Assembly (NCBI GenBank): GCA_037443265.1
Contig: JBBIOR010000014.1
Coordinates: forward strand, 29,410 to 45,840
DNA from: Candidatus Fraserbacteria bacterium
Lineage (GTDB): Bacteria; Bipolaricaulota; Bipolaricaulia; RBG-16-55-9
Length of the DNA stretch: 16,431 nucleotides
Direction: 5' to 3'
Under the pieces are notes generated by a model. The model had not been told where the DNA came from, ran no database searches, and saw only the letters and a program-made list of their open reading frames with translations. Positions 2,881 through 10,573 of the stretch are shown here, piece after piece. The number at the start of each line of letters is the position of its first letter. Within the stretch, counting starts at the first letter, position 1. Both the position numbers and the translations under genes were made by a program.

Positions 2881-2919
2881 GGGGAGGGTACGCCCAACGT
2901 GCCCTCCCCTTAATTTCTT
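2881..2919. terminator. Intrinsic terminator between convergent genes (probably bidirectional)
   Basis: 12-bp stem GGGGAGGGTACG (2881-2892) / CGTGCCCTCCCC (2898-2909) with one G-U pair and a 5-nt loop, followed by TTAATTTCTT. Lies between the cupredoxin stop and the convergent response-regulator stop. Confidence 0.8.
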
Positions 2920-3583
2920 AATCGCGGGGCGACAATCCCTCACGAATCGCAAAGAGCGCCGCTTGCGTGCGATTGTTAATATGCAGCTTATCGAAGATGA
3001 TGGAGAGCCGGTTGCGTACCGTCTTCTCCGCAATCTTCAGCCGCTGAGCGATCTCAGGGTTCGTCGCGCCTTGAGCCAATAAGCTTAAGATCTCTTTCTC
3101 TCGCTCCGTCAGATGGATGTATTCGGCCTCAGGACGGGAGCGCACAGCACTGAGTTTGCGAAATTCCTCCAGCATCTTAAGGGCCATGGTCGGATTGAGC
3201 TGGGCCTCACCACGATGGACCGCGCGTATGGTCTCTAGCAGTTCAGCGGCAGCGGCGTTCTTCAAAACGTAGCCTCGGGCACCGGCCTTGATCGCTTCAA
3301 ACAGAAATTCTTCTTCGGTGTGGATGGTGAGCATCACCACGCGGGTCTGAGGATACTGAGCCGTAATGTGCTGAGTCGCCTTCACTCCGGCATCCGGCTG
3401 GCCAGCCATTTCGATATCCATAAGCACGATATCAGGGTTCAGCGACCGTGCCAGTTTCACGGCCTGCTCGCCATCATGGGCTTGTCCCACCACGAGCATA
3501 TCCTCTTGCAGGCGCAGAAGCTCCGCGAGCGCCTGACTGACCAGCACGTGATCGTCCACAATCAGCACGCGGATCCGGCTCAT
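2918..3583 (-). CDS. NarL/FixJ (LuxR-type HTH) two-component response regulator, copy 2
   Basis: IRVLIVDDH, PDIVLMDIEM, GYVLK, and LuxR HTH LTEREKEILSLL...EKTVRNRLS...KLHINNRTQAA. Clear paralog of 612..1274. Confidence 0.95.
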   Translation of the reverse strand: MSRIRVLIVDDHVLVSQALAELLRLQEDMLVVGQAHDGEQAVKLARSLNPDIVLMDIEMAGQPDAGVKATQHITAQYPQTRVVMLTIHTEEEFLFEAIKAGARGYVLKNAAAAELLETIRAVHRGEAQLNPTMALKMLEEFRKLSAVRSRPEAEYIHLTEREKEILSLLAQGATNPEIAQRLKIAEKTVRNRLSIIFDKLHINNRTQAALFAIREGLSPRD

Positions 3584-3588
3584 GCGTT

Positions 3589-4830
3589 CTACACTCCCGA
3601 TGGCAACGGGATCGTGAGCGTAAGCGTTGTGCCCCGCCCGGCTGCCGAATCGAGCGTGAAGGTCCCCCCCTGCTGCTCCACGCGCTCCCGGATGTGTTTC
3701 AGCCCTAAACCCGCACTGCGGACGGGCTGAGTTATCCCTGGGTGGCCATCAAAGCCGCGTCCGTCATCTCGGATGGTCATGGTGACCCCTTGGGGGTCAG
3801 TCAGATCGAGCTGGAGCCAGACCCGCTGAGCTTGGGCGTGCTTGGCCACGTTGTTGAGCGCCTCTTGAGCGATCCGAAAGAGAGTCGATTCCACTTCATA
3901 GGGCAACTCTCGCTCCGGACCTTGCAGCGAAAAGTCAACGGCACACGGGTGCTGCTGCGCAAACTCTGCAGCCAGCCTGCGCAGGGCACTCACAAACCCG
4001 AAGCGCTCCAGCTGGATGGGACGTAGCGCCCGCACGATCCGCTGCACATTGCTGATCTCCTCCTGCAAGGTCTCGCGGACGCTTAAAAGCTCCTGAGCCG
4101 CTCGGTCCGGATCGCTCCTTAATAGCTGGTGACAGATGTCGAGCTTGATCCCCAGCAAGAAGAGATCCTGCTGGACGCCGTCATGCAGCTCACGCGCGAT
4201 GCGGGCCCGCTCGTCTTGAACTGCCTGCTCGCGCCTTTTGCGCTCCGTCACATCCCGAATGATGAGTACCCGCATCGGCCCTTCTCCTACTTCCTCGGCG
4301 AGGAGACTGCAACTCACTTCCACCGGGATCTGACGTCCATCACGCGCCCGCATCACAGTCTCCCAGCGGCTTGCGTTTGCGGGCCATCTCAAGGAGGGGC
4401 CCAGCAGGCGCTCAAAGGCCTCTCCTAGGGCCTCCTCGGCGCCATAGCCGAAGAGCGTCTCGGCCCCCCGATTCCAGGAACGAATGCGCCTTTGGGCGTC
4501 TACACTCACGATGGCGTCGGCAGAACCCTCAACGACTGCCGCCAGCTGCTGCTCGGCGCGCTCACGCTCCATGCGCCAGCGGAAGAAGATGCTGCTTGCA
4601 AAGAGCAGAAAGAGCAGCGGTCCCAACACCCCATATATGACGATCTCCAGGGCGTAGTGGCCATACTCACCCCAGTGATCATGGACCCAGTGCATCCCGA
4701 ACCACTGGATGATGGAAGTTAGGGCAGAGGCCCCAATCAGCGCTGTGATCAGCATAATTCTCCAGCGCCGGGTTAGCTCCCGCCAGCCTCCGATCAGTAT
4801 TCGGGTCCACTGATTAATGCCTTTAGTCAT
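3589..4830 (-). CDS. HisKA_3 sensor histidine kinase, copy 2, two TM helices with His-rich loop plus a cytoplasmic PAS domain
   Basis: PAS (VVEGSADAIVSVD...WNRGAETLFGY...EALG; RDGRQIPVEVS; IIRDVTERK), H-box ERARIARELHDGVQQ, QEALNNVAKHA, IRDDGRGF, GLGLKHIRERVE. Start placed at ATG 4830 (AGAGGG upstream) because a minus-strand TATAAT at 4855-4860 lies inside the longer 4866 ORF; the start remains uncertain. Confidence 0.92.
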   Translation of the reverse strand: MTKGINQWTRILIGGWRELTRRWRIMLITALIGASALTSIIQWFGMHWVHDHWGEYGHYALEIVIYGVLGPLLFLLFASSIFFRWRMERERAEQQLAAVVEGSADAIVSVDAQRRIRSWNRGAETLFGYGAEEALGEAFERLLGPSLRWPANASRWETVMRARDGRQIPVEVSCSLLAEEVGEGPMRVLIIRDVTERKRREQAVQDERARIARELHDGVQQDLFLLGIKLDICHQLLRSDPDRAAQELLSVRETLQEEISNVQRIVRALRPIQLERFGFVSALRRLAAEFAQQHPCAVDFSLQGPERELPYEVESTLFRIAQEALNNVAKHAQAQRVWLQLDLTDPQGVTMTIRDDGRGFDGHPGITQPVRSAGLGLKHIRERVEQQGGTFTLDSAAGRGTTLTLTIPLPSGV

Positions 4831-4854
4831 AGAAGCCCTCTTCATGTGCTTGGC

Positions 4855-4962
4855 ATTATATCCCATCGACTTCTTCGCCGAGGAGGGACAAACGTCCTGG
4901 GACTCGCCTGCCTTGTCCCAGGCGGTTTTGCTCTACTCAAGCGCTTTCCAGCCATTTACCAT
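4855..4962. promoter_or_regulatory. Divergent promoter region 2: minus-strand -10 (TATAAT, 4855-4860), box AGGGACAAACGTCCT (4884-4898), inverted repeat CCTGGGAC/GTCCCAGG (4896-4922), element TTTGCTCTAC (4927-4936), plus-strand -10-like TACCAT (4957-4962)
   Basis: GGAC-N4-GTCC palindrome; same order and near-identical spacings as 2224-2319. Confidence 0.6.
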
Positions 4963-5019
4963 GGGGTGCCGTAGCAAATTCAAATTATAGAAAGTTATAG
5001 AGAGGAGGAAGCACATAAG

Positions 5020-5511
5020 ATGAAGCTAACACGTCGTCAAGCGCTGAAGATGGCGGGTGTTGCCACGGTGGGAGGGCTGGCCCTCCCGTCGGTACGCAGG
5101 CCCTTCATTGTGCGGGCCCATGAGGAAGAGGAGGAAGAGCCTTGGGAGGCCTTCGTAGAAGAGGAGCTGGAGATCGAGATGGGGTCCATGTACTTCCAGG
5201 TGAAGAAGCCGCAAGAGCAGCCTCCAAACGCTCCCATCACCCTCCAAGTCGGCAAGGTCTACTCGCTGGAGTTCAAGAACGTAGACGAGACTATCCCTCA
5301 CAACGCGCTCTTCGGCAGGGACCCTGATCTGGAGAAGCGCCTGTACAAGACGCCGCTCTTTGAGGATCTCATTGGCATTGAGCTGCACGGCGGCGAGGAG
5401 GGCGAACTCTTCATTCGGGTGCCGGACAAGCCCGGCGATTGGGAGATGGGTTGCTTCGTGAGCGGTCACTATGAGGCCGGCATGAGGGCAACCATCACAA
5501 TCGTGCAATAA
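5020..5511 (+). CDS. Tat-exported type-1 (blue) copper cupredoxin, paralog 2, Met at axial position
   Basis: TRRQALK Tat signal, VRA|H cleavage site and acidic N-terminus. Ligands HNALFG ... WEMGCFVSGHYEAGM. Shares FGRxPDLExRLYK with paralog 1. RBS GAGGAGG. Confidence 0.88.
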   Translation: MKLTRRQALKMAGVATVGGLALPSVRRPFIVRAHEEEEEEPWEAFVEEELEIEMGSMYFQVKKPQEQPPNAPITLQVGKVYSLEFKNVDETIPHNALFGRDPDLEKRLYKTPLFEDLIGIELHGGEEGELFIRVPDKPGDWEMGCFVSGHYEAGMRATITIVQ

Positions 5512-5530
5512 GACACTGACCCCAAGCAGC

Positions 5531-5557
5531 GGGAGCTTCGGCTTACACGGGGCTCCC
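5531..5557 (+). other. Intergenic RNA hairpin without U-tract (mRNA-stabilising or partial attenuator)
   Basis: GGGAGCTTCG (5531-5540) pairs with CGGGGCTCCC (5548-5557), 10 bp including two G-U pairs; no poly-T follows. Confidence 0.55.
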
Positions 5558-5591
5558 CCGACAAAGCGCAGCTCAAGAGAAGGAGCGTCTG

Positions 5592-6251
5592 ATGTTTAAG
5601 AACTCGATCAAGCTACCGCTCCTTGCGCTAATCTTCGCCTCAGTCGGGGTCCTGGTGCTCGTGTGGGATCTCAAAGAGAAGGCGCAGAGGGAGTCGGCTG
5701 CCGCATTGCCCCCAGCAGGGGGCAAGCGGCTTCCCAGCTCCTCCCGGCCCTTACAACTGGACGGCGTGATCGTGGAAGGGGAGTATCAAAACGTCCTGCA
5801 GCCGTCCGAGCTCAATATGGAGCTCTTCTGGACGATCCGTGGCGATCGCATCTTTGTAGGGCTGCGCGCTCCGACTCAGGGCTGGGTGGCCTTGGGACTG
5901 GCCCCGGAGGGTCCCCTGATGAAGGGCGCCGACATCATCATCGGCTATGTCAAACAGGGCCAGCTCTATCTGCAAGACAGCTATGCCGATTCGCCCGCCG
6001 GCCACCAGTCCGATGAGAAGTTGGGTGGAAGAGATGACATCCTCGGGAAGGCCGGCTCGGAAGATCAAGGCGTCACCACCCTCGAGTTCTCGCGGAAGCT
6101 CGAGACAGGGGATCCGTACGATAAGGCCATTCGTGAGGGGGAGCGGGTGACGCTGCTGCTAGCATACGCGACGCAAGATGATTTCACGAGTTATCACGCG
6201 AAGAGTCGGGCCCTTCTGCTGAACATCGATCTCTGGGGAGGGAGTCGCTAA
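5592..6251 (+). CDS. Membrane-anchored DOMON-domain protein, probable b-heme binding (Met/His)
   Basis: N-terminal hydrophobic anchor. DOMON signature GWVALGLAPEGPLMKGADIIIGYV (conserved Met), TTLEFSRKLETGDPYD, and C-terminal conserved His in DDFTSYH. RBS AAGGAG. Confidence 0.85.
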   Translation: MFKNSIKLPLLALIFASVGVLVLVWDLKEKAQRESAAALPPAGGKRLPSSSRPLQLDGVIVEGEYQNVLQPSELNMELFWTIRGDRIFVGLRAPTQGWVALGLAPEGPLMKGADIIIGYVKQGQLYLQDSYADSPAGHQSDEKLGGRDDILGKAGSEDQGVTTLEFSRKLETGDPYDKAIREGERVTLLLAYATQDDFTSYHAKSRALLLNIDLWGGSR

Positions 6252-6613
6252 TGCCGACGCACCTGGAAGCCTATGAGATTGGTCTCATCACTTGGGTGGG
6301 GCTGCTTCTGGTCACAGGGGTTCAGGGGCTGATCTCCGTCTATGTGGAGGGGCAGGAGCTACGCCCCTTGGAGCACAAACCGGCCCGAGAGCCTTGGGAA
6401 GCCGTCTTACTCGTCGCTGCCTTCACGCTGCTAGAGCTCCTCTGGGCAGGGGGGTTCATCCGAGGACTCTTTAGTGTGAGGGCTATGAGCGAGCTGGCCG
6501 TCTATGGGGCGCTGCTTTCTTTTACGCTCGCTGCCTCGCTCCTGGTCTATAGGCGGGCGTTCGTGGCTGATGAGAGCCTGGTACAGGAGCGCGATGATGG
6601 CATCCCCTGGTGA
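6251..6613 (+). CDS. fbcX: Small three-TM membrane protein, probable FbcX-like accessory subunit of the Rieske/cytochrome b complex
   Basis: TAATG coupling to the DOMON gene, directly upstream of the Rieske gene. Motifs GLISVYVEGQELRP and C-terminal YRRAFVADE...GIPW resemble my recollection of Thermus FbcX (not verified by search). Confidence 0.6.
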   Translation: MPTHLEAYEIGLITWVGLLLVTGVQGLISVYVEGQELRPLEHKPAREPWEAVLLVAAFTLLELLWAGGFIRGLFSVRAMSELAVYGALLSFTLAASLLVYRRAFVADESLVQERDDGIPW

Positions 6614-7268
6614 GAGACCCAAAGTGCCGCTGGAGGGCAAGCGTCGGGGATTATCTCGACGTGACCTGGTGAAATGGATGTTAGGGGCCGGTGCAGCTGG
6701 GGCCGCCGGGGTAGCGCTGACCGGAGTCCTCAGCTCGCTGCGGCCTTCGCAGCGCGAGTCCAAATGGCAGGAGCCGGTGGCAGCTGGGGATCGCCTTGTC
6801 TTTGCCCTCGGAGCCAACAAGGGGCAGATCATCCGGCGCGATAACATCCCGGTGAGCGAGGCAGTGCTGGCCTTTCCCGAAGGCAAGGACGGCAATCAAG
6901 ATAATCTGATCATGCTCTGCCATCTCGACCCGGCAACCCTTGAGCCGCCGACGCAACTGGAGTGGACTGCCGAAGGCTTTGTGGCCTACAGTGCTATCTG
7001 CACTCATCTAGGCTGCACCGTCTACTTCTCGCATGAGGCCATGGAAAACATTCCTCACCCTCACCTTCACAGTCCGTGTCATGGAGGCATCTTCGATCCC
7101 CAGCGAGGGGCCATCGTCTTGGGGGGGCCTCCGCCTAGGCCGCTGCCGCAATTGCCCATCAAGATCAACGATCAAGGTGAAATCGTTGCGGCAGGCTGGT
7201 TCGAAGAACCGCCGGGCGTGGTTCCAGAAGAGGAGCTAAAGCGGTGGCACGCGCAGCACCCCAGCTGA
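6597..7268 (+). CDS. qcrA: Rieske iron-sulfur protein of a quinol-oxidising Rieske/cytochrome b complex (box II variant SPCHGG)
   Basis: AGGAG at 6585-6589 before ATG 6594/6597. Tat anchor SRRDLVK, box I AYSAICTHLGC, box II HSPCHGGIFD, Pro loop GGPPPRPLPQLPI. Confidence 0.9.
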   Translation: MASPGERPKVPLEGKRRGLSRRDLVKWMLGAGAAGAAGVALTGVLSSLRPSQRESKWQEPVAAGDRLVFALGANKGQIIRRDNIPVSEAVLAFPEGKDGNQDNLIMLCHLDPATLEPPTQLEWTAEGFVAYSAICTHLGCTVYFSHEAMENIPHPHLHSPCHGGIFDPQRGAIVLGGPPPRPLPQLPIKINDQGEIVAAGWFEEPPGVVPEEELKRWHAQHPS

Positions 7269-8545
7269 AAAGACAAGAGGCAGAGCCTAAGGCAGGCTGG
7301 CTGGACGAGCGCCTGGACCTCGCGCGTTTCAAAACCAAATATCTGCGCAAGGTCTTCCCCGTACATTCGTCGTTCTTTTTGGGTGAGATCGCACTGTTCA
7401 GCTTCGTCATCCTGGTGTTCACAGGGGTCCTGCTGGCCTTCACGTATGAGCCCTCGACGGAGCTAGTCGATTTGGATGGCCAAAGAGTTCCGGCAGCCTA
7501 TGCCAGCGTCGTCCTGAACGACCGCACCCCATTGGGTCTGCTTGTAAGGCAAATCCACCACTGGTCGGCACACATCATGATCGCCGCCGTCATTCTGCAT
7601 CTGCTAAGAATCTTCTTCACTGGGCTCTACAAGAAGCCGCGGGAGCTCAACTGGCTGGTGGGTCTTGTGCTCCTCTTCTTGACGGTCTTTGCTGCCTTCT
7701 CCGGCTATCTGCTCCCCTTCGACGAGTTCTCTGTTACGGCCACCGGGATTGGCTACAACATCGTCCGCTCCGTCCCGTGGATTGGGCCCTCCTTGGCAGA
7801 TTTTCTGTTTGCCGGGAAATTCCCCTCGGCGGCGACGATTCCGCGCTTCTATGCGTATCATGTGGTGCTTGCTCCCTGGCTCTTGCTAGGGCTGATTGGG
7901 CTACATCTCTTGATCGTGTTCAAGCAGAAGCACAGTCAGCCACCTTATGCACGGACACTGGTGGGAAGCCACAAGATCTTGGGAGTCCCGCTTTGGCCTC
8001 AGCAAGCACTCATGATGGCCGTGCTCTTTTTGATTCTATCTGGGAGTTTGTTCTTGATCGCCGGATTCTTCCCGGTGCACCCGGTTGCATATTACGGCCC
8101 ACCGGGGCCGGCCACGCCTATTGTAAAACCCGATTGGTACCTGCTCTGGCCGTATGGAGTCCTCAAGCTCATCCCCGGCTGGATCAATTTTCAGTTTCTG
8201 GGCACGACGATCAACTCTGAGAACGTGGGCGGAGTGCTCATTCCGCTGCTGATCGCCTTGCTCATGGTACTTCTGCCCTTCTTGGATCGGGCGCGTGAGC
8301 CGGTGCACTTTCTGGAGCTGCCCAGTGCTCATCCCGTGCGGACGGCCGTGGGTGTGGGCGCTCTGGCGTTTTTTGCTGTGCTGATGATCGCCGGCTACAA
8401 CGAGGAACTGGGGTTGTCGGTCGGGGCACTCCAGCTGGGAGCTGGGCTCCTGCCGTTGATTTTAGGTGGTCTTACGTATCTTAGTCTACGCGGGGGAGGT
8501 GACAGGCATGGCAGGCTTTCGCTTGTGGGAAGGCATCGGGATTGA
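7244..8545 (+). CDS. qcrB: Cytochrome b (unsplit b6+subunit IV type) of the Rieske/cytochrome b complex
   Basis: GTG start after GAGGAG. HSSFFLGEIALF; heme-ligand helices RQIHHWSAH...ILHLLRIFF and RFYAYH-x14-H; YKKPRELNW; GYLLP; Qo motif KPDWY. No heme-ci Cys. Confidence 0.95.
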   Translation: MARAAPQLKRQEAEPKAGWLDERLDLARFKTKYLRKVFPVHSSFFLGEIALFSFVILVFTGVLLAFTYEPSTELVDLDGQRVPAAYASVVLNDRTPLGLLVRQIHHWSAHIMIAAVILHLLRIFFTGLYKKPRELNWLVGLVLLFLTVFAAFSGYLLPFDEFSVTATGIGYNIVRSVPWIGPSLADFLFAGKFPSAATIPRFYAYHVVLAPWLLLGLIGLHLLIVFKQKHSQPPYARTLVGSHKILGVPLWPQQALMMAVLFLILSGSLFLIAGFFPVHPVAYYGPPGPATPIVKPDWYLLWPYGVLKLIPGWINFQFLGTTINSENVGGVLIPLLIALLMVLLPFLDRAREPVHFLELPSAHPVRTAVGVGALAFFAVLMIAGYNEELGLSVGALQLGAGLLPLILGGLTYLSLRGGGDRHGRLSLVGRHRD

Positions 8546-8825
8546 CGATCTACTTGACCATCTCTATCACGCGGTGATAGATCAACTGAGGGCGGAGCAG
8601 GCTGGCGAACCTGCGGAGACGCTCAAGCTCAAGGTGCGAAAGGCGTTGAAGAGGGTACTCAATACGGACATGTATGCCTCGCCCGTGTGCGGGATCGCCT
8701 CGATCTGCCGACCCTCGGAGGAGGGCCGGGTGAAGCCCTGGTCACGCCGGTCATACGAATGGGGGCTGGTCGCGCAACCCGATCCGGAGCTAGATGCTCC
8801 AGAGTGGAGCAGCACCAAGAGCTGA
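8508..8825 (+). CDS. Hypothetical soluble protein (105 aa) with a C-x5-C motif
   Basis: Strong RBS GGAGGT at 8495-8500 before ATG 8508. Overlaps the cytochrome b 3' end by 38 nt and fills the gap to the next promoter. Contains PVCGIASICRP. Confidence 0.65.
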   Translation: MAGFRLWEGIGIDDLLDHLYHAVIDQLRAEQAGEPAETLKLKVRKALKRVLNTDMYASPVCGIASICRPSEEGRVKPWSRRSYEWGLVAQPDPELDAPEWSSTKS

Positions 8826-8866
8826 TCCAGATCATTGACAAATCGGAGTAACATGGAGTAAACTCC
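8822..8866 (+). promoter_or_regulatory. Sigma70 promoter (TTGACA-N18-TAAACT) with FNR-like box CTGAT-CCAG-ATCAT abutting the -35
   Basis: TTGACA at 8835-8840 and TAAACT at 8859-8864. FNR-like palindrome at 8822-8835 (8/10 match to TTGAT-N4-ATCAA). GGAGTAA direct repeat (8845, 8855) and palindrome GGAGT-AA-ACTCC (8855-8866). Confidence 0.6.
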
Positions 8867-8880
8867 CAAGCCAGGAGTGG

Positions 8881-9207
8881 ATGACTGTGATGAGCCTGCG
8901 AGTCGCAGTGTCTGTGATCTTGGTACTGCTCCTGGTCGCTGTACCTCAGGCCAGAGGCTCAATTCCTTGCATGTCTTTTGAGTCGTCCGCGCCCAGCGAT
9001 TCGCAGGCTCACTACCCACCTATTCCTTCCAATGGCTGCAGTTCCAGCGACCATGCCGCGCCAAGCTTCGCTACCAGCTGCTGTGGGATGGCCCTGCTGC
9101 CGGATGGGTTCTTCCTGCTGGCAGAGAAGTCGTTGGGACACTGGGGCTCTATCGCCTCTTTGGCTCCTTTCAGCCCGGTTCCCACGCATTGGCGTCCCCC
9201 GGCCTAG
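8881..9207 (+). CDS. Secreted Cys-containing leader protein with C-terminal RPP motif (DUF2946/CutF/CruR-like)
   Basis: RBS AGGAG. Signal peptide (SLRVAVSVILVLLLVAVPQARG), low-complexity body with 4 Cys (PCM, GCS, SCCGM) and terminal HWRPPA-stop. First gene of a copper operon. Confidence 0.7.
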   Translation: MTVMSLRVAVSVILVLLLVAVPQARGSIPCMSFESSAPSDSQAHYPPIPSNGCSSSDHAAPSFATSCCGMALLPDGFFLLAEKSLGHWGSIASLAPFSPVPTHWRPPA

Positions 9208-9281: not shown

Positions 9282-10055
9282 ATGAAGCTCAATATGAAAT
9301 TGCTGGGCATCCTGATCGCGATGCTCTTAGTCGGTGGAGCCTATTGGCTTGGATCTTACCTGACGACGGCACAGATGATGCCAGCCCCAGCGCAACAGAC
9401 GACAGACCCGATGTCGCGCATGGCGACAGCTCTAGAGCGCATGGCTCAAGCCATAGAGCGGATCGGCGGCATGGGCTCCGGCAGGATGGGCCTGATGGGT
9501 GGGATGTCGGGCATGATGGGCAGCATGGCCCATGGACAGCCAATGGGCTCCATGATGCAGGACATGAAGACAATGATGGAAGAGATGATGCAGTCCTGCC
9601 AGCAAATGATGGGCCAGAACGGAATGGCAAGCCCAATGAGGGAGCCTCAACCCACAGCTCTGACGGAGGCGGATCTCACCCGCACGACGACCGGGGCGGC
9701 CATCACGGTCGCAGCCACCTTCCTGAATCCCTTGCTCAAGCCAGAAGAGGTCAATGGGAAGCTCGTCTTCAAGCTCGCCCTGGATACGCACAGCGCAGAC
9801 CTCATGTCCTATGACTTGACGAAGATGGCCGTTCTTCGCAACAGCGAAGGGCTGGCCGTCGAGCAGGGCTTTACGTGGGAGCCGCAAGAGGAGTCAAGCC
9901 ATCACCGAGCCGGGCTGCTCAGAGTCGATGCCTCCGTCGGGGGTAAGCCACTCATCACTCAAGACACGAAGTACATCGAGCTGGAGCTGAAGGGTCTTGG
10001 CATTCCCTCTCGGCTCTTTAAGTGGGAAGAGGCCTTCTTGGGCCAGGCAAAGTGA
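9282..10055 (+). CDS. Membrane-anchored/exported Met-rich putative copper-binding protein
   Basis: RBS AAGGAGGAGG. N-terminal TM, about 24 Met in a segment of roughly 90 residues, and a C-terminal beta-type domain with LDTHS and SSHHRAG motifs. Confidence 0.8.
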   Translation: MKLNMKLLGILIAMLLVGGAYWLGSYLTTAQMMPAPAQQTTDPMSRMATALERMAQAIERIGGMGSGRMGLMGGMSGMMGSMAHGQPMGSMMQDMKTMMEEMMQSCQQMMGQNGMASPMREPQPTALTEADLTRTTTGAAITVAATFLNPLLKPEEVNGKLVFKLALDTHSADLMSYDLTKMAVLRNSEGLAVEQGFTWEPQEESSHHRAGLLRVDASVGGKPLITQDTKYIELELKGLGIPSRLFKWEEAFLGQAK

Positions 10056-10069
10056 GCCAGGAGGCGAGC

Positions 10070-10573
10070 ATGAACCTCAAGACTTGGGGCGTGATCCTCG
10101 CGGTCGTGCTCGCTTTGGGCGCGTATCTCTTGTACGCGACGCGTTCGGGAACGGAGCATGCCGGGCCGGCTCCGGCGGCCTCCGACGGGAAGATCTCGAT
10201 CATGCCCGCCGTTCGCAATCTGGGCGACGTCAGCATTCGCAAGGGCACGATTAGCACCCTCTTTACCGTCGAAAATATGGGCAGCGCGGATCTTGTCATT
10301 CAGGATATGGAGACTTCCTGTATGTGCACGGAGGCGGCGCTGGTCCTGGGCAATCAAGAGGGGCCGAGATTCGGAATGCGTGGCCACGGGGCGCGCCCGT
10401 TGGGCTGGTCGGCCACGCTCAAGCCCGGCCAGCAGGCTGCGCTGAAAGTCTATTACGACCCTACAGCGCATGGAGAGATCCTCGGACCGATCACCCGCCT
10501 CGTGCGCATCTACTCCAGCGATCCCAATCAGCCCTACGTGGACGTGAGGATCGAACTCAATCAAGTGCCCTAA
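10070..10573 (+). CDS. DUF1573-like Ig-fold protein with CxC motif
   Basis: RBS AGGAGG before ATG 10070. N-terminal TM, then FTVENMGSADLVI..METSCMCT..LKPGQQAALKVYYDP..GPITRLVRIYSSDP, a typical DUF1573 pattern. Confidence 0.8.
   Translation: MNLKTWGVILAVVLALGAYLLYATRSGTEHAGPAPAASDGKISIMPAVRNLGDVSIRKGTISTLFTVENMGSADLVIQDMETSCMCTEAALVLGNQEGPRFGMRGHGARPLGWSATLKPGQQAALKVYYDPTAHGEILGPITRLVRIYSSDPNQPYVDVRIELNQVP

Follow-up and report, generated by a model that had tools for sequence, protein, structure and literature searches.

A DOMON protein in the cytochrome c position of a bacterial Rieske/cytochrome b operon, and a conserved serine at its Rieske box II ligand position

Introduction

What takes the place of cytochrome c when the operon of a Rieske/cytochrome b complex encodes none? 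The question is raised by a window of 16,431 nucleotides (the whole stretch of DNA analysed) from a Candidatus Fraserbacteria genome, in which the genes for a small membrane subunit, a Rieske-family protein and a cytochrome b are preceded by a gene for a DOMON protein. A first-pass annotation, based only on the letters and translations of the open reading frames (ORFs), had proposed that the DOMON protein replaces the c-type subunit and passes electrons to a cupredoxin encoded upstream. We followed it up with family scans, a structure model, and genome and metagenome comparisons. The genomic evidence for the DOMON substitution is solid, and analogues of it are known; the new surprise, and the one most open to testing, is the serine conserved at the Rieske site. 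What had been claimed for the cupredoxin and for copper proves weaker than put forward.

Gene Order of the Operon

The core of the operon comprises the following features:
5592..6251, + strand: membrane-anchored DOMON protein, predicted haem-b subunit; helix at residues 7-37, beta-sandwich at about 55-216 (PF03351, E 2.8e-24)
5919..5921, + strand: Met110, predicted axial haem ligand (36 of 36 DOMON domains)
6195..6197, + strand: His202, predicted axial haem ligand (35 of 36 DOMON domains; the exception is a frameshifted copy)
6251..6613, + strand: three-helix small membrane subunit, with profile homology to the pre-Rieske gene of Deinococcota, Thermomicrobia and haloarchaea and to the N-terminus of QcrA
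6594..7268 (database start 6597), + strand: Rieske-family protein with a twin-arginine translocation (Tat) signal/anchor; box I CTHLGC intact, box II SPCH (PF00355)
7071..7073, + strand: Ser160 (AGT) at the position of the box II iron-ligand Cys (window sequence and independent contig)
7244..8545, + strand: cytochrome b, unsplit, with eight helices; His105, His119, His206, His221, and PDWY at 296-299 (family scans, alignment)

The translationally coupled run that had been described, from the DOMON gene through the small subunit, Rieske protein and cytochrome b to a further ORF, stands as to ORFs, strand and overlaps. The DOMON and small-subunit genes share 1 nucleotide (nt) in a TAATG junction (6249-6253), and the later overlaps are 17-20 nt (small subunit/Rieske), 25 nt (Rieske/cytochrome b) and 38 nt (cytochrome b/ORF). 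Likewise as claimed, CxxCH is found in none of the six proteins, counting the upstream cupredoxin; the 16 CxxCH ORFs of the genome (at least 80 amino acids (aa)) all lie elsewhere.

The best model for the cytochrome b is actinobacterial QcrB (E 3.5e-94, under the model's cut-off), and in cytochrome b searches its nearest relatives carry the labels Candidatus Fraserbacteria or Bipolaricaulota. Its four haem His residues and the PDWY motif of the Qo site are invariant in 8 of 8 aligned cytochrome b sequences. PDWY has been linked to menaquinol and a low-potential Rieske protein in the clade of Actinobacteria, Deinococcus-Thermus and haloarchaea (PMC4122944).

A Conserved DOMON Module

To place this gene order in context, a cytochrome b alignment scan of a genome collection confirmed 223 stretches, the best 80 of which were used for locus counts. 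This set overlaps with our search of 184 genomes of the phylum; counts from the two should not be summed, and related genomes do not count as independent. The order DOMON, small subunit, Rieske protein, cytochrome b occurs in 34 of the best 80 loci: 10 belong to the window's lineage or lie next to it, 16 belong to Gemmatimonadota or are nested among them, and eight are from Desulfurellales. The gene-order module is real and spans three phyla, and the adjacency of the DOMON gene is not sporadic. A cytochrome c gene occupies the same slot in 19 of the 80 loci, all from Deinococcota and none with a DOMON gene. DOMON takes the cytochrome c slot, where it and mono- or dihaem cytochrome c are mutually exclusive, which supports at the level of gene order the replacement proposed in the first-pass annotation. 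Six loci end too early to classify. On a quick cytochrome b tree, a single origin of the DOMON group is unsupported (69).

In 28 of the 34 module loci, DOMON and the small subunit form one fused protein, which puts DOMON on the outer side of the complex; in the window they are encoded by separate genes. The fusion recurs in eight of 34 scanned small-subunit relatives and has reached a cultured genus, in Desulfurella amilsii (WP_086034766.1). Within the phylum, 10 of 184 genomes encode the small subunit (11 copies), and the same 10 encode the window-type Rieske protein; no copy of the small subunit was found in viral contigs. Its profile matches the pre-Rieske gene in all 19 Deinococcota loci, and it is homologous to the pre-Rieske gene of Thermomicrobia and haloarchaea, including ORF1 of the Haloferax nar operon, and to the N-terminal membrane part of QcrA (7e1v_M, E 2.7e-4). 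A fold search with the small subunit returned nothing at E 0.001, with QcrA chains only at E 0.9-2.6. Compared by profile with the first helix of fourth subunits that lack DOMON, the DOMON anchor gave no significant match. Variants of the module include a duplicated Rieske gene (L041) and a tandem double-DOMON protein (L039).

DOMON as a Predicted Haem-b Subunit

Would the DOMON protein be suited to the work of a cytochrome c? The Met (LMKGAD) and His (SYH) positions and the membrane anchor noted in the first pass are present. We aligned 36 DOMON domains, 35 from module loci and the window copy: Met110 and His202 are conserved as listed above, and a second His (138) is found in 34. The structure model of the window protein (predicted local distance difference test score 88.5) matches, by VIA-align, dopamine beta-hydroxylase (Z 14.7), EbdC (14.2) and NxrC (12.6); it scores Z 12.6-13.3 against the cytochrome domains of pyranose and cellobiose dehydrogenase and 9.7 against a CBM9 sugar-binding domain. 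A sequence search against the PDB gave 0 matches, and none of the 32 module DOMON domains scanned matched an NCBIfam model. Because the module recurs, the Met/His pair is kept and Deinococcota have a cytochrome c in the slot, the prediction that DOMON is the haem-b acceptor subunit is well supported. A complex prediction with the Rieske head, DOMON, haem and 2Fe-2S scored 0.00 in two runs, which speaks neither for nor against it.

Alternatively, DOMON could be an accessory or carbohydrate-binding protein outside the electron path, with the true acceptor a cytochrome c encoded beside the operon in relatives or elsewhere in the present genome. DOMON genes are indeed common outside the module (33 of 61 genomes of the lineage, with four in the host genome), the host encodes cytochrome c maturation and several c-type cytochromes, and many module loci have a pentahaem cytochrome c gene (see below). 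However, the near-invariance of the Met/His pair, the fusion to the fourth subunit, a fold nearer to haem-binding than to sugar-binding members, and the 16 of 34 loci in which the upstream gene is not a pentahaem cytochrome make this explanation very unlikely. Of the three further DOMON paralogues that the host genome encodes, two lack an equivalent of His202.

A Serine in Place of a Rieske Ligand

The Rieske protein is not canonical, and the first-pass annotation overlooked Ser160: box II in the window reads HLHSPCH, where homologues have CPCH. The closest solved relative is the Thermus protein 1nyk (E 7.7e-29), and box II is followed by a GF pair, a signature of potentials of 120-160 mV (PMC3509893). 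Since the Cys just before the box II His is the disulfide Cys (R. capsulatus C155, beside ligand H156; PMC7908018), the residue lost at position 160 is the iron ligand. The two-Cys/two-His cluster site, complete in 114 of 123 related proteins, is incomplete in the window copy. The box II ligand Cys binds the iron that stays ferric.

Two trivial explanations were rejected. Sequencing or assembly error is countered by an independent contig of the probable source run, identical over 4900-9000 at a depth of 14.6 (the sample is the same, so the biology is not independent), and by other clusters with the same Ser (see below). A private lesion in a decaying operon was first suggested by the 77 readable Rieske homologues of the genome set, all of which have Cys, and was dropped once relatives with Ser appeared.

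These relatives fall into five other 90%-clusters that also carry a box II Ser. The nine Ser proteins among the 123 are the window copy, five proteins (P0126-P0130) that are 67-75% identical to it, and three members of the L255 cluster that hardly differ from one another; three further members of this cluster likewise have Ser. L255 is also the one Ser protein among the 77 Rieske proteins scored for box II in a metagenome comparison set of 80 loci, and its codon is TCC versus AGT in the window. Judged by its cytochrome b, L255 stands nearest to loci of Thermaceae, and there is no DOMON gene upstream, indicating that the Ser is independent of DOMON. This locus (L255:123-2756) has a second, independent gene for a Ser-type Rieske protein in a Thermaceae-like operon with a helix-turn-helix regulator, and an upstream cytochrome c or DOMON gene is absent from it.

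In an alignment of 16 proteins, including all nine with Ser, Cys136, His138, His163, the disulfide pair and the Pro (PPR) loop are invariant; the Ser variant is retained across 60-75% identity with the other motif residues unchanged. On a quick tree of 43 proteins, Ser is found in two separate clades and needs four changes, three of them forced by starred branches; the window's clade comprises six Ser and six Cys rows. Long retention and the interchange of Cys and Ser among close relatives fit a kept function. Engineered Ser-ligated [2Fe-2S] ferredoxins can assemble. The pattern suggests a natural Cys/Ser/His2 Rieske cluster, while whether the Ser-ligated cluster would be a working one appears to us evenly balanced. 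We found no description of a natural Ser-substituted Rieske site in the accessible literature, which included few subscription papers and no supplements; "non-canonical" in PMC4683180 refers to extra subunits.

The opposite outcome is that Ser160 abolishes the [2Fe-2S] cluster, leaving a structural or other-metal protein and a wire from cytochrome b to DOMON with no Q-cycle. Loss of an inner Cys ligand impairs Rieske cluster assembly (PMC2946596), and a pairing of DOMON with a b-type cytochrome has a precedent in plant CYBDOM proteins (PMC10784544). In addition, the host genome itself has, at L047 (G000:C38, 2468-4235), a second DOMON gene directly 5' of a bc-type cytochrome b gene with no Rieske gene between them, but this DOMON lacks the His ligand. 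Against a cluster-less protein stand the three other ligands, the disulfide pair and the PPR loop, kept in nine of nine Ser proteins, as well as the alternation of Cys and Ser among close relatives (three to four changes) and the intact PDWY motif. We consider this outcome quite unlikely.

Downstream Acceptors and the Copper Setting

If DOMON accepts electrons from the Rieske protein, where would they go next? Upstream of the module are the genes on which the first-pass answer was built:
2918..3583, - strand: NarL/LuxR-type response regulator, divergent from the operon (PF00072 and PF00196; the L035 orthologue, 61% identical, is in the same place)
3589..4866, - strand: HisKA_3 sensor kinase with a PAS domain and a short His-rich extracytoplasmic loop (PF07730, PF02518, PF00989; L035 orthologue 50% identical)
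5020..5511, + strand: Tat-exported cupredoxin-like protein, candidate acceptor (type-1 copper motif His94, Cys145, His150, Met155; TIGR01409)

The last of these has no Pfam match and only a weak match to CopI (E 0.0045); we call it a cupredoxin because of its His94...Cys145-x4-His150-x4-Met155 motif. An 80-nt gap separates its gene from the DOMON gene. In this gap no terminator-like site was found on the + strand, a 10-bp GC-rich hairpin at 5531-5556 has no U tract, and folding is not beyond that of shuffled sequences (z -1.19).

The gene upstream of DOMON encodes a pentahaem cytochrome c in 18 of the 34 module loci, a cupredoxin in two and another protein in 11; in two more, DsbB is fused to DOMON, and one locus ends early. 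The first-pass label "heme-c-free" therefore holds for the window copy but not for the module, and homologous operons do in part bring their own cytochrome c, one of the outcomes that the first pass had named as counting against its reading. The two cupredoxin loci, L078 (found by script; two cupredoxins) and L064 (found by hand; two cupredoxin-like genes and the same two-component system upstream), have proteins distant from that of the window. The window's cupredoxin family is found in 16 of 184 phylum genomes, versus 10 for the module, and it often neighbours a kinase of the same type and copA/csoR with no module present. The three orthologues nearest to the window protein (55-62% identity) are in module-bearing genomes, but on other contigs or on the opposite strand rather than upstream of the module. 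The case for a dedicated cupredoxin acceptor is accordingly weak, although the window cupredoxin is a possible partner of the complex.

The surroundings differ between lineages. Desulfurellales copies are preceded by nos accessory genes and followed by a monohaem cytochrome c gene, often with a molybdoenzyme as well, and in L043 the gene after the module encodes a cd1-type nitrite reductase. Two metagenome loci have a cupredoxin gene directly 5' of a DOMON-less small subunit. From these neighbourhoods, the acceptor that would follow DOMON is exchangeable between lineages. A related metagenome module (L243-L267) consists of a pentahaem cytochrome c, an 87-aa small subunit, the Rieske protein, cytochrome b and a second pentahaem cytochrome c, with DOMON absent; by the look of its layout, it resembles the Methanoperedens cluster of PMC4683180.

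Within the small clade to which the window belongs, a copper setting is indeed found. Four other loci in its starred cytochrome b group adjoin copA, DUF1573 or CsoR-like genes: copA follows the module in L065 and L071, and DUF1573/CsoR-like genes are in L064 and L066. These copper islands, together with a second Rieske/cytochrome b pair in the host genome, lend partial support to the suggestion that the complex is copper-linked and not the housekeeping one. The two-component system is present as described, of NarL/LuxR type (HisKA_3, PAS) with the short His-rich loop, and "metal-sensing" is a putative label for it.

This setting could mean that the complex is a copper-induced redox system of the cell envelope, in which DOMON and a co-transcribed cupredoxin serve periplasmic copper handling or disulfide control and not respiration. 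The copper islands (L064, L065, L066, L071), the L064 and L078 arrangements, DsbB-DOMON fusions in L065 and L071, and the absence of a terminator-like site between the cupredoxin and DOMON genes are in its favour. However, upstream cupredoxins occur in only two of 34 loci and are only distantly related to that of the window; the closest orthologues lie elsewhere, the cupredoxin family accompanies the kinase and copA/csoR in module-free genomes, and the Gemmatimonadota and Desulfurellales copies have multihaem cytochromes, nos accessory genes and molybdoenzymes for neighbours. We regard such a system as unlikely. DsbB is fused ahead of the module DOMON in L033:16496-17638 and L036:7946-9091, and the DsbB-DOMON fusion suggests a tie between the complex and disulfide formation.

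Neighboring Genes and the Host Genome

The run ends with one further ORF:
8508..8825, + strand: lineage-specific 105-aa protein with a Cys-x5-Cys motif; conserved, probably co-transcribed here, not a core subunit (phylum search)

As a core subunit it is unsupported: it has matches in 29 of 184 phylum genomes, two of them marginal and most without the module, and no homologue was seen at the Gemmatimonadota or Desulfurellales module loci. Atlas leads for this family point to a KAP NTPase, all with sub-0.9 scores. Beyond it, positions 8881-9207 and 9282-10573 hold copper-island accessory genes that recur after the module in the window's clade, encoding a Cys/His-rich secreted 108-aa protein, a Met-rich 257-aa protein and DUF1573. 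Upstream, 612-2866 and 2918-5511 form a tandem duplicate unit, each a NarL-type kinase/regulator pair divergent from a Tat cupredoxin; the regulators are 61% identical and the cupredoxins 43%, and the first cupredoxin has Gln for the axial Met.

Elsewhere in the host genome, which is 88% complete, a NirK-like copper enzyme gene (under the family cut-off) ends about 2.3 kb before the window, and a CuA-type oxidase is encoded. This NirK-like multicopper protein (L048:10900-12153), encoded just upstream of the window, has a C-terminal amicyanin-like domain, and its gene is near those for an Rrf2 regulator, a radical S-adenosylmethionine protein and Crp/Fnr. The second Rieske/cytochrome b pair of the host is b6-like: a Rieske gene, split over two contig ends, and an N-terminal cytochrome b gene are followed by RnfC/RnfD-like and ferredoxin-like genes, labels that come from a reading of the translations (G000:C12, 49621-44249, minus strand; G000:C17, 3-545).

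Comparison with Known Complexes

One of the closest known systems is the Thermus/Deinococcus bc complex, whose cytochrome c and fourth subunit are named FbcC and FbcX. Gene order, a homologous fourth subunit, an unsplit PDWY cytochrome b and a Rieske protein nearest to 1nyk/3fou are shared; the window differs in having DOMON for cytochrome c and Ser for the box II ligand Cys. Its fourth subunit has three helices, and the DOMON anchor possibly supplies the first (a visual match, not significant). The actinobacterial bcc complex (QcrCAB; 7e1v, 7q21) provides the best NCBIfam models for the window's Rieske protein and cytochrome b, and the small subunit resembles the QcrA N-terminus. In contrast to bcc, the window lacks a dihaem QcrC, encodes the counterpart of the QcrA N-terminal part separately and has no aa3 oxidase in the operon.

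The first pass was aware of no characterised complex of such composition; characterised archaeal analogues exist. In the Sulfolobales cytochrome ba complex CbsAB-SoxLN-OdsN, the b-type CbsA is the analogue of cytochrome c1, and the b-type cytochrome, hydrophobic subunit, Rieske protein and cytochrome b are likewise encoded in one cluster (PMC5461723, PMC11486757). FoxC, which is related to CbsA, has an EbdC-like haem domain (PMC13741234), a fold that is common ground with the window DOMON (Z 14.2 to EbdC). The families appear to differ, however: PF03351 was found in none of 14 control genomes, and PF09459 (EB_dh) was found in Sulfolobus and Haloferax; moreover, SoxN has PPWF and belongs to an archaeal clade (PMC4122944), whereas the window cytochrome b has PDWY.

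The haloarchaeal Nar-linked Rieske/cytochrome b module, for which a periplasmic b-type cytochrome has been proposed as shuttle, shares with the window the absence of cytochrome c, the cytochrome b clade and the low-potential GF signature (PMC3509893). In Haloferax mediterranei, the pre-Rieske gene matches the small-subunit profile (30 bits) and an EB_dh-type gene is in the operon. There, however, the haem-b protein is the EB_dh-type partner of nitrate reductase, encoded three genes downstream and unmatched by the DOMON profile, while the window and its relatives have a PF03351 DOMON in direct coupling with the fourth subunit or joined to it by fusion. By family assignment, the archaeal b-type acceptors appear to use the sister EB_dh family. 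Haem-b DOMON domains of cellobiose and pyranose dehydrogenase and of plant AIR12/CYBDOM (PMC10784544) resemble the window protein in fold (Z 12.6-13.3) and in the Met/His pair, but here the partner is Rieske/cytochrome b and not a flavo/pyrroloquinoline quinone domain or cytochrome b561. We found no PF03351 DOMON subunit of a Rieske/cytochrome b complex in the accessible literature (few subscription papers, no supplements).

Proposed Mechanism

Taken together, these comparisons are consistent with a Rieske/cytochrome b complex of the Thermus/actinobacterial clade with a haem-b acceptor. Quinol, probably menaquinol, would be oxidised at the PDWY Qo site, one electron passing via haems bL and bH and the other to the Rieske cluster, which in the window's clade is probably ligated by Cys136, Ser160, His138 and His163. 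From there, the electron could pass to the haem b of DOMON, held by Met110 and His202; tethered on the outer face beside the small subunit, DOMON would do the job of cytochrome c1/FbcC. An exchangeable partner would then take the electrons, a pentahaem cytochrome c in most relatives and possibly the upstream cupredoxin here, with a copper enzyme, the NirK-like protein or the CuA oxidase, as a terminal step. Gene order, conservation, fusion, ligand residues and fold are the observations on which this scheme is built; haem binding, the electron path, the Q-cycle, cluster occupancy and the identity of the final acceptor we infer from them. We judge the general route to be reasonably probable: electrons from quinol would reach the haem b of DOMON by way of the Rieske cluster and go on to a periplasmic carrier that can be exchanged, and cytochrome b would run a Q-cycle. 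Its more specific form, an energy-conserving complex with a Cys/Ser/His2 Rieske cluster that arose at least twice and a haem-c-free chain via DOMON haem b to a blue copper protein, is a tentative proposal that we would not call probable.

Several observations weigh against this scheme. In the 88%-complete genome, the quinone pathway search did not find the MqnA family, gave MenB under its cut-off and returned one non-CtaB UbiA homologue. Neither a cytochrome c nor a DOMON gene is adjacent in 21 of the 80 loci (14 Thermomicrobia, seven haloarchaea), a pentahaem cytochrome c is beside DOMON in the 18 loci mentioned, and among the 80 metagenome loci is the type with pentahaem cytochrome c and no DOMON; in both cases the cytochrome could be the direct acceptor. 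Dopamine beta-hydroxylase, the top fold match, has been solved without haem. DOMON domains can bind sugars (PMC10784544). Finally, one of the four canonical Rieske ligands is absent from the window copy, and substitution by an unspecified residue showed that a Rieske-type ferredoxin of Sulfolobus needs both of its inner Cys residues for assembly or stability of the cluster (PMC2946596).

Implications

Using a different family, PF03351, the module would bring the archaeal solution, a b-type beta-sandwich cytochrome for cytochrome c1, to bacteria of at least three phyla. Its fusion ties DOMON to the fourth subunit, whose role is unexplained and which proves to be the N-terminal part of actinobacterial QcrA in detached form, and the cultured carrier Desulfurella makes the module testable. 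Two-Cys/two-His ligation is treated as a defining property of Rieske proteins, and here a natural Cys-to-Ser form is kept across divergent genomes. Its close Cys and Ser relatives are natural pairs for the effects of a hard oxygen ligand on assembly, potential and quinol bifurcation, or for abandonment of the cluster.

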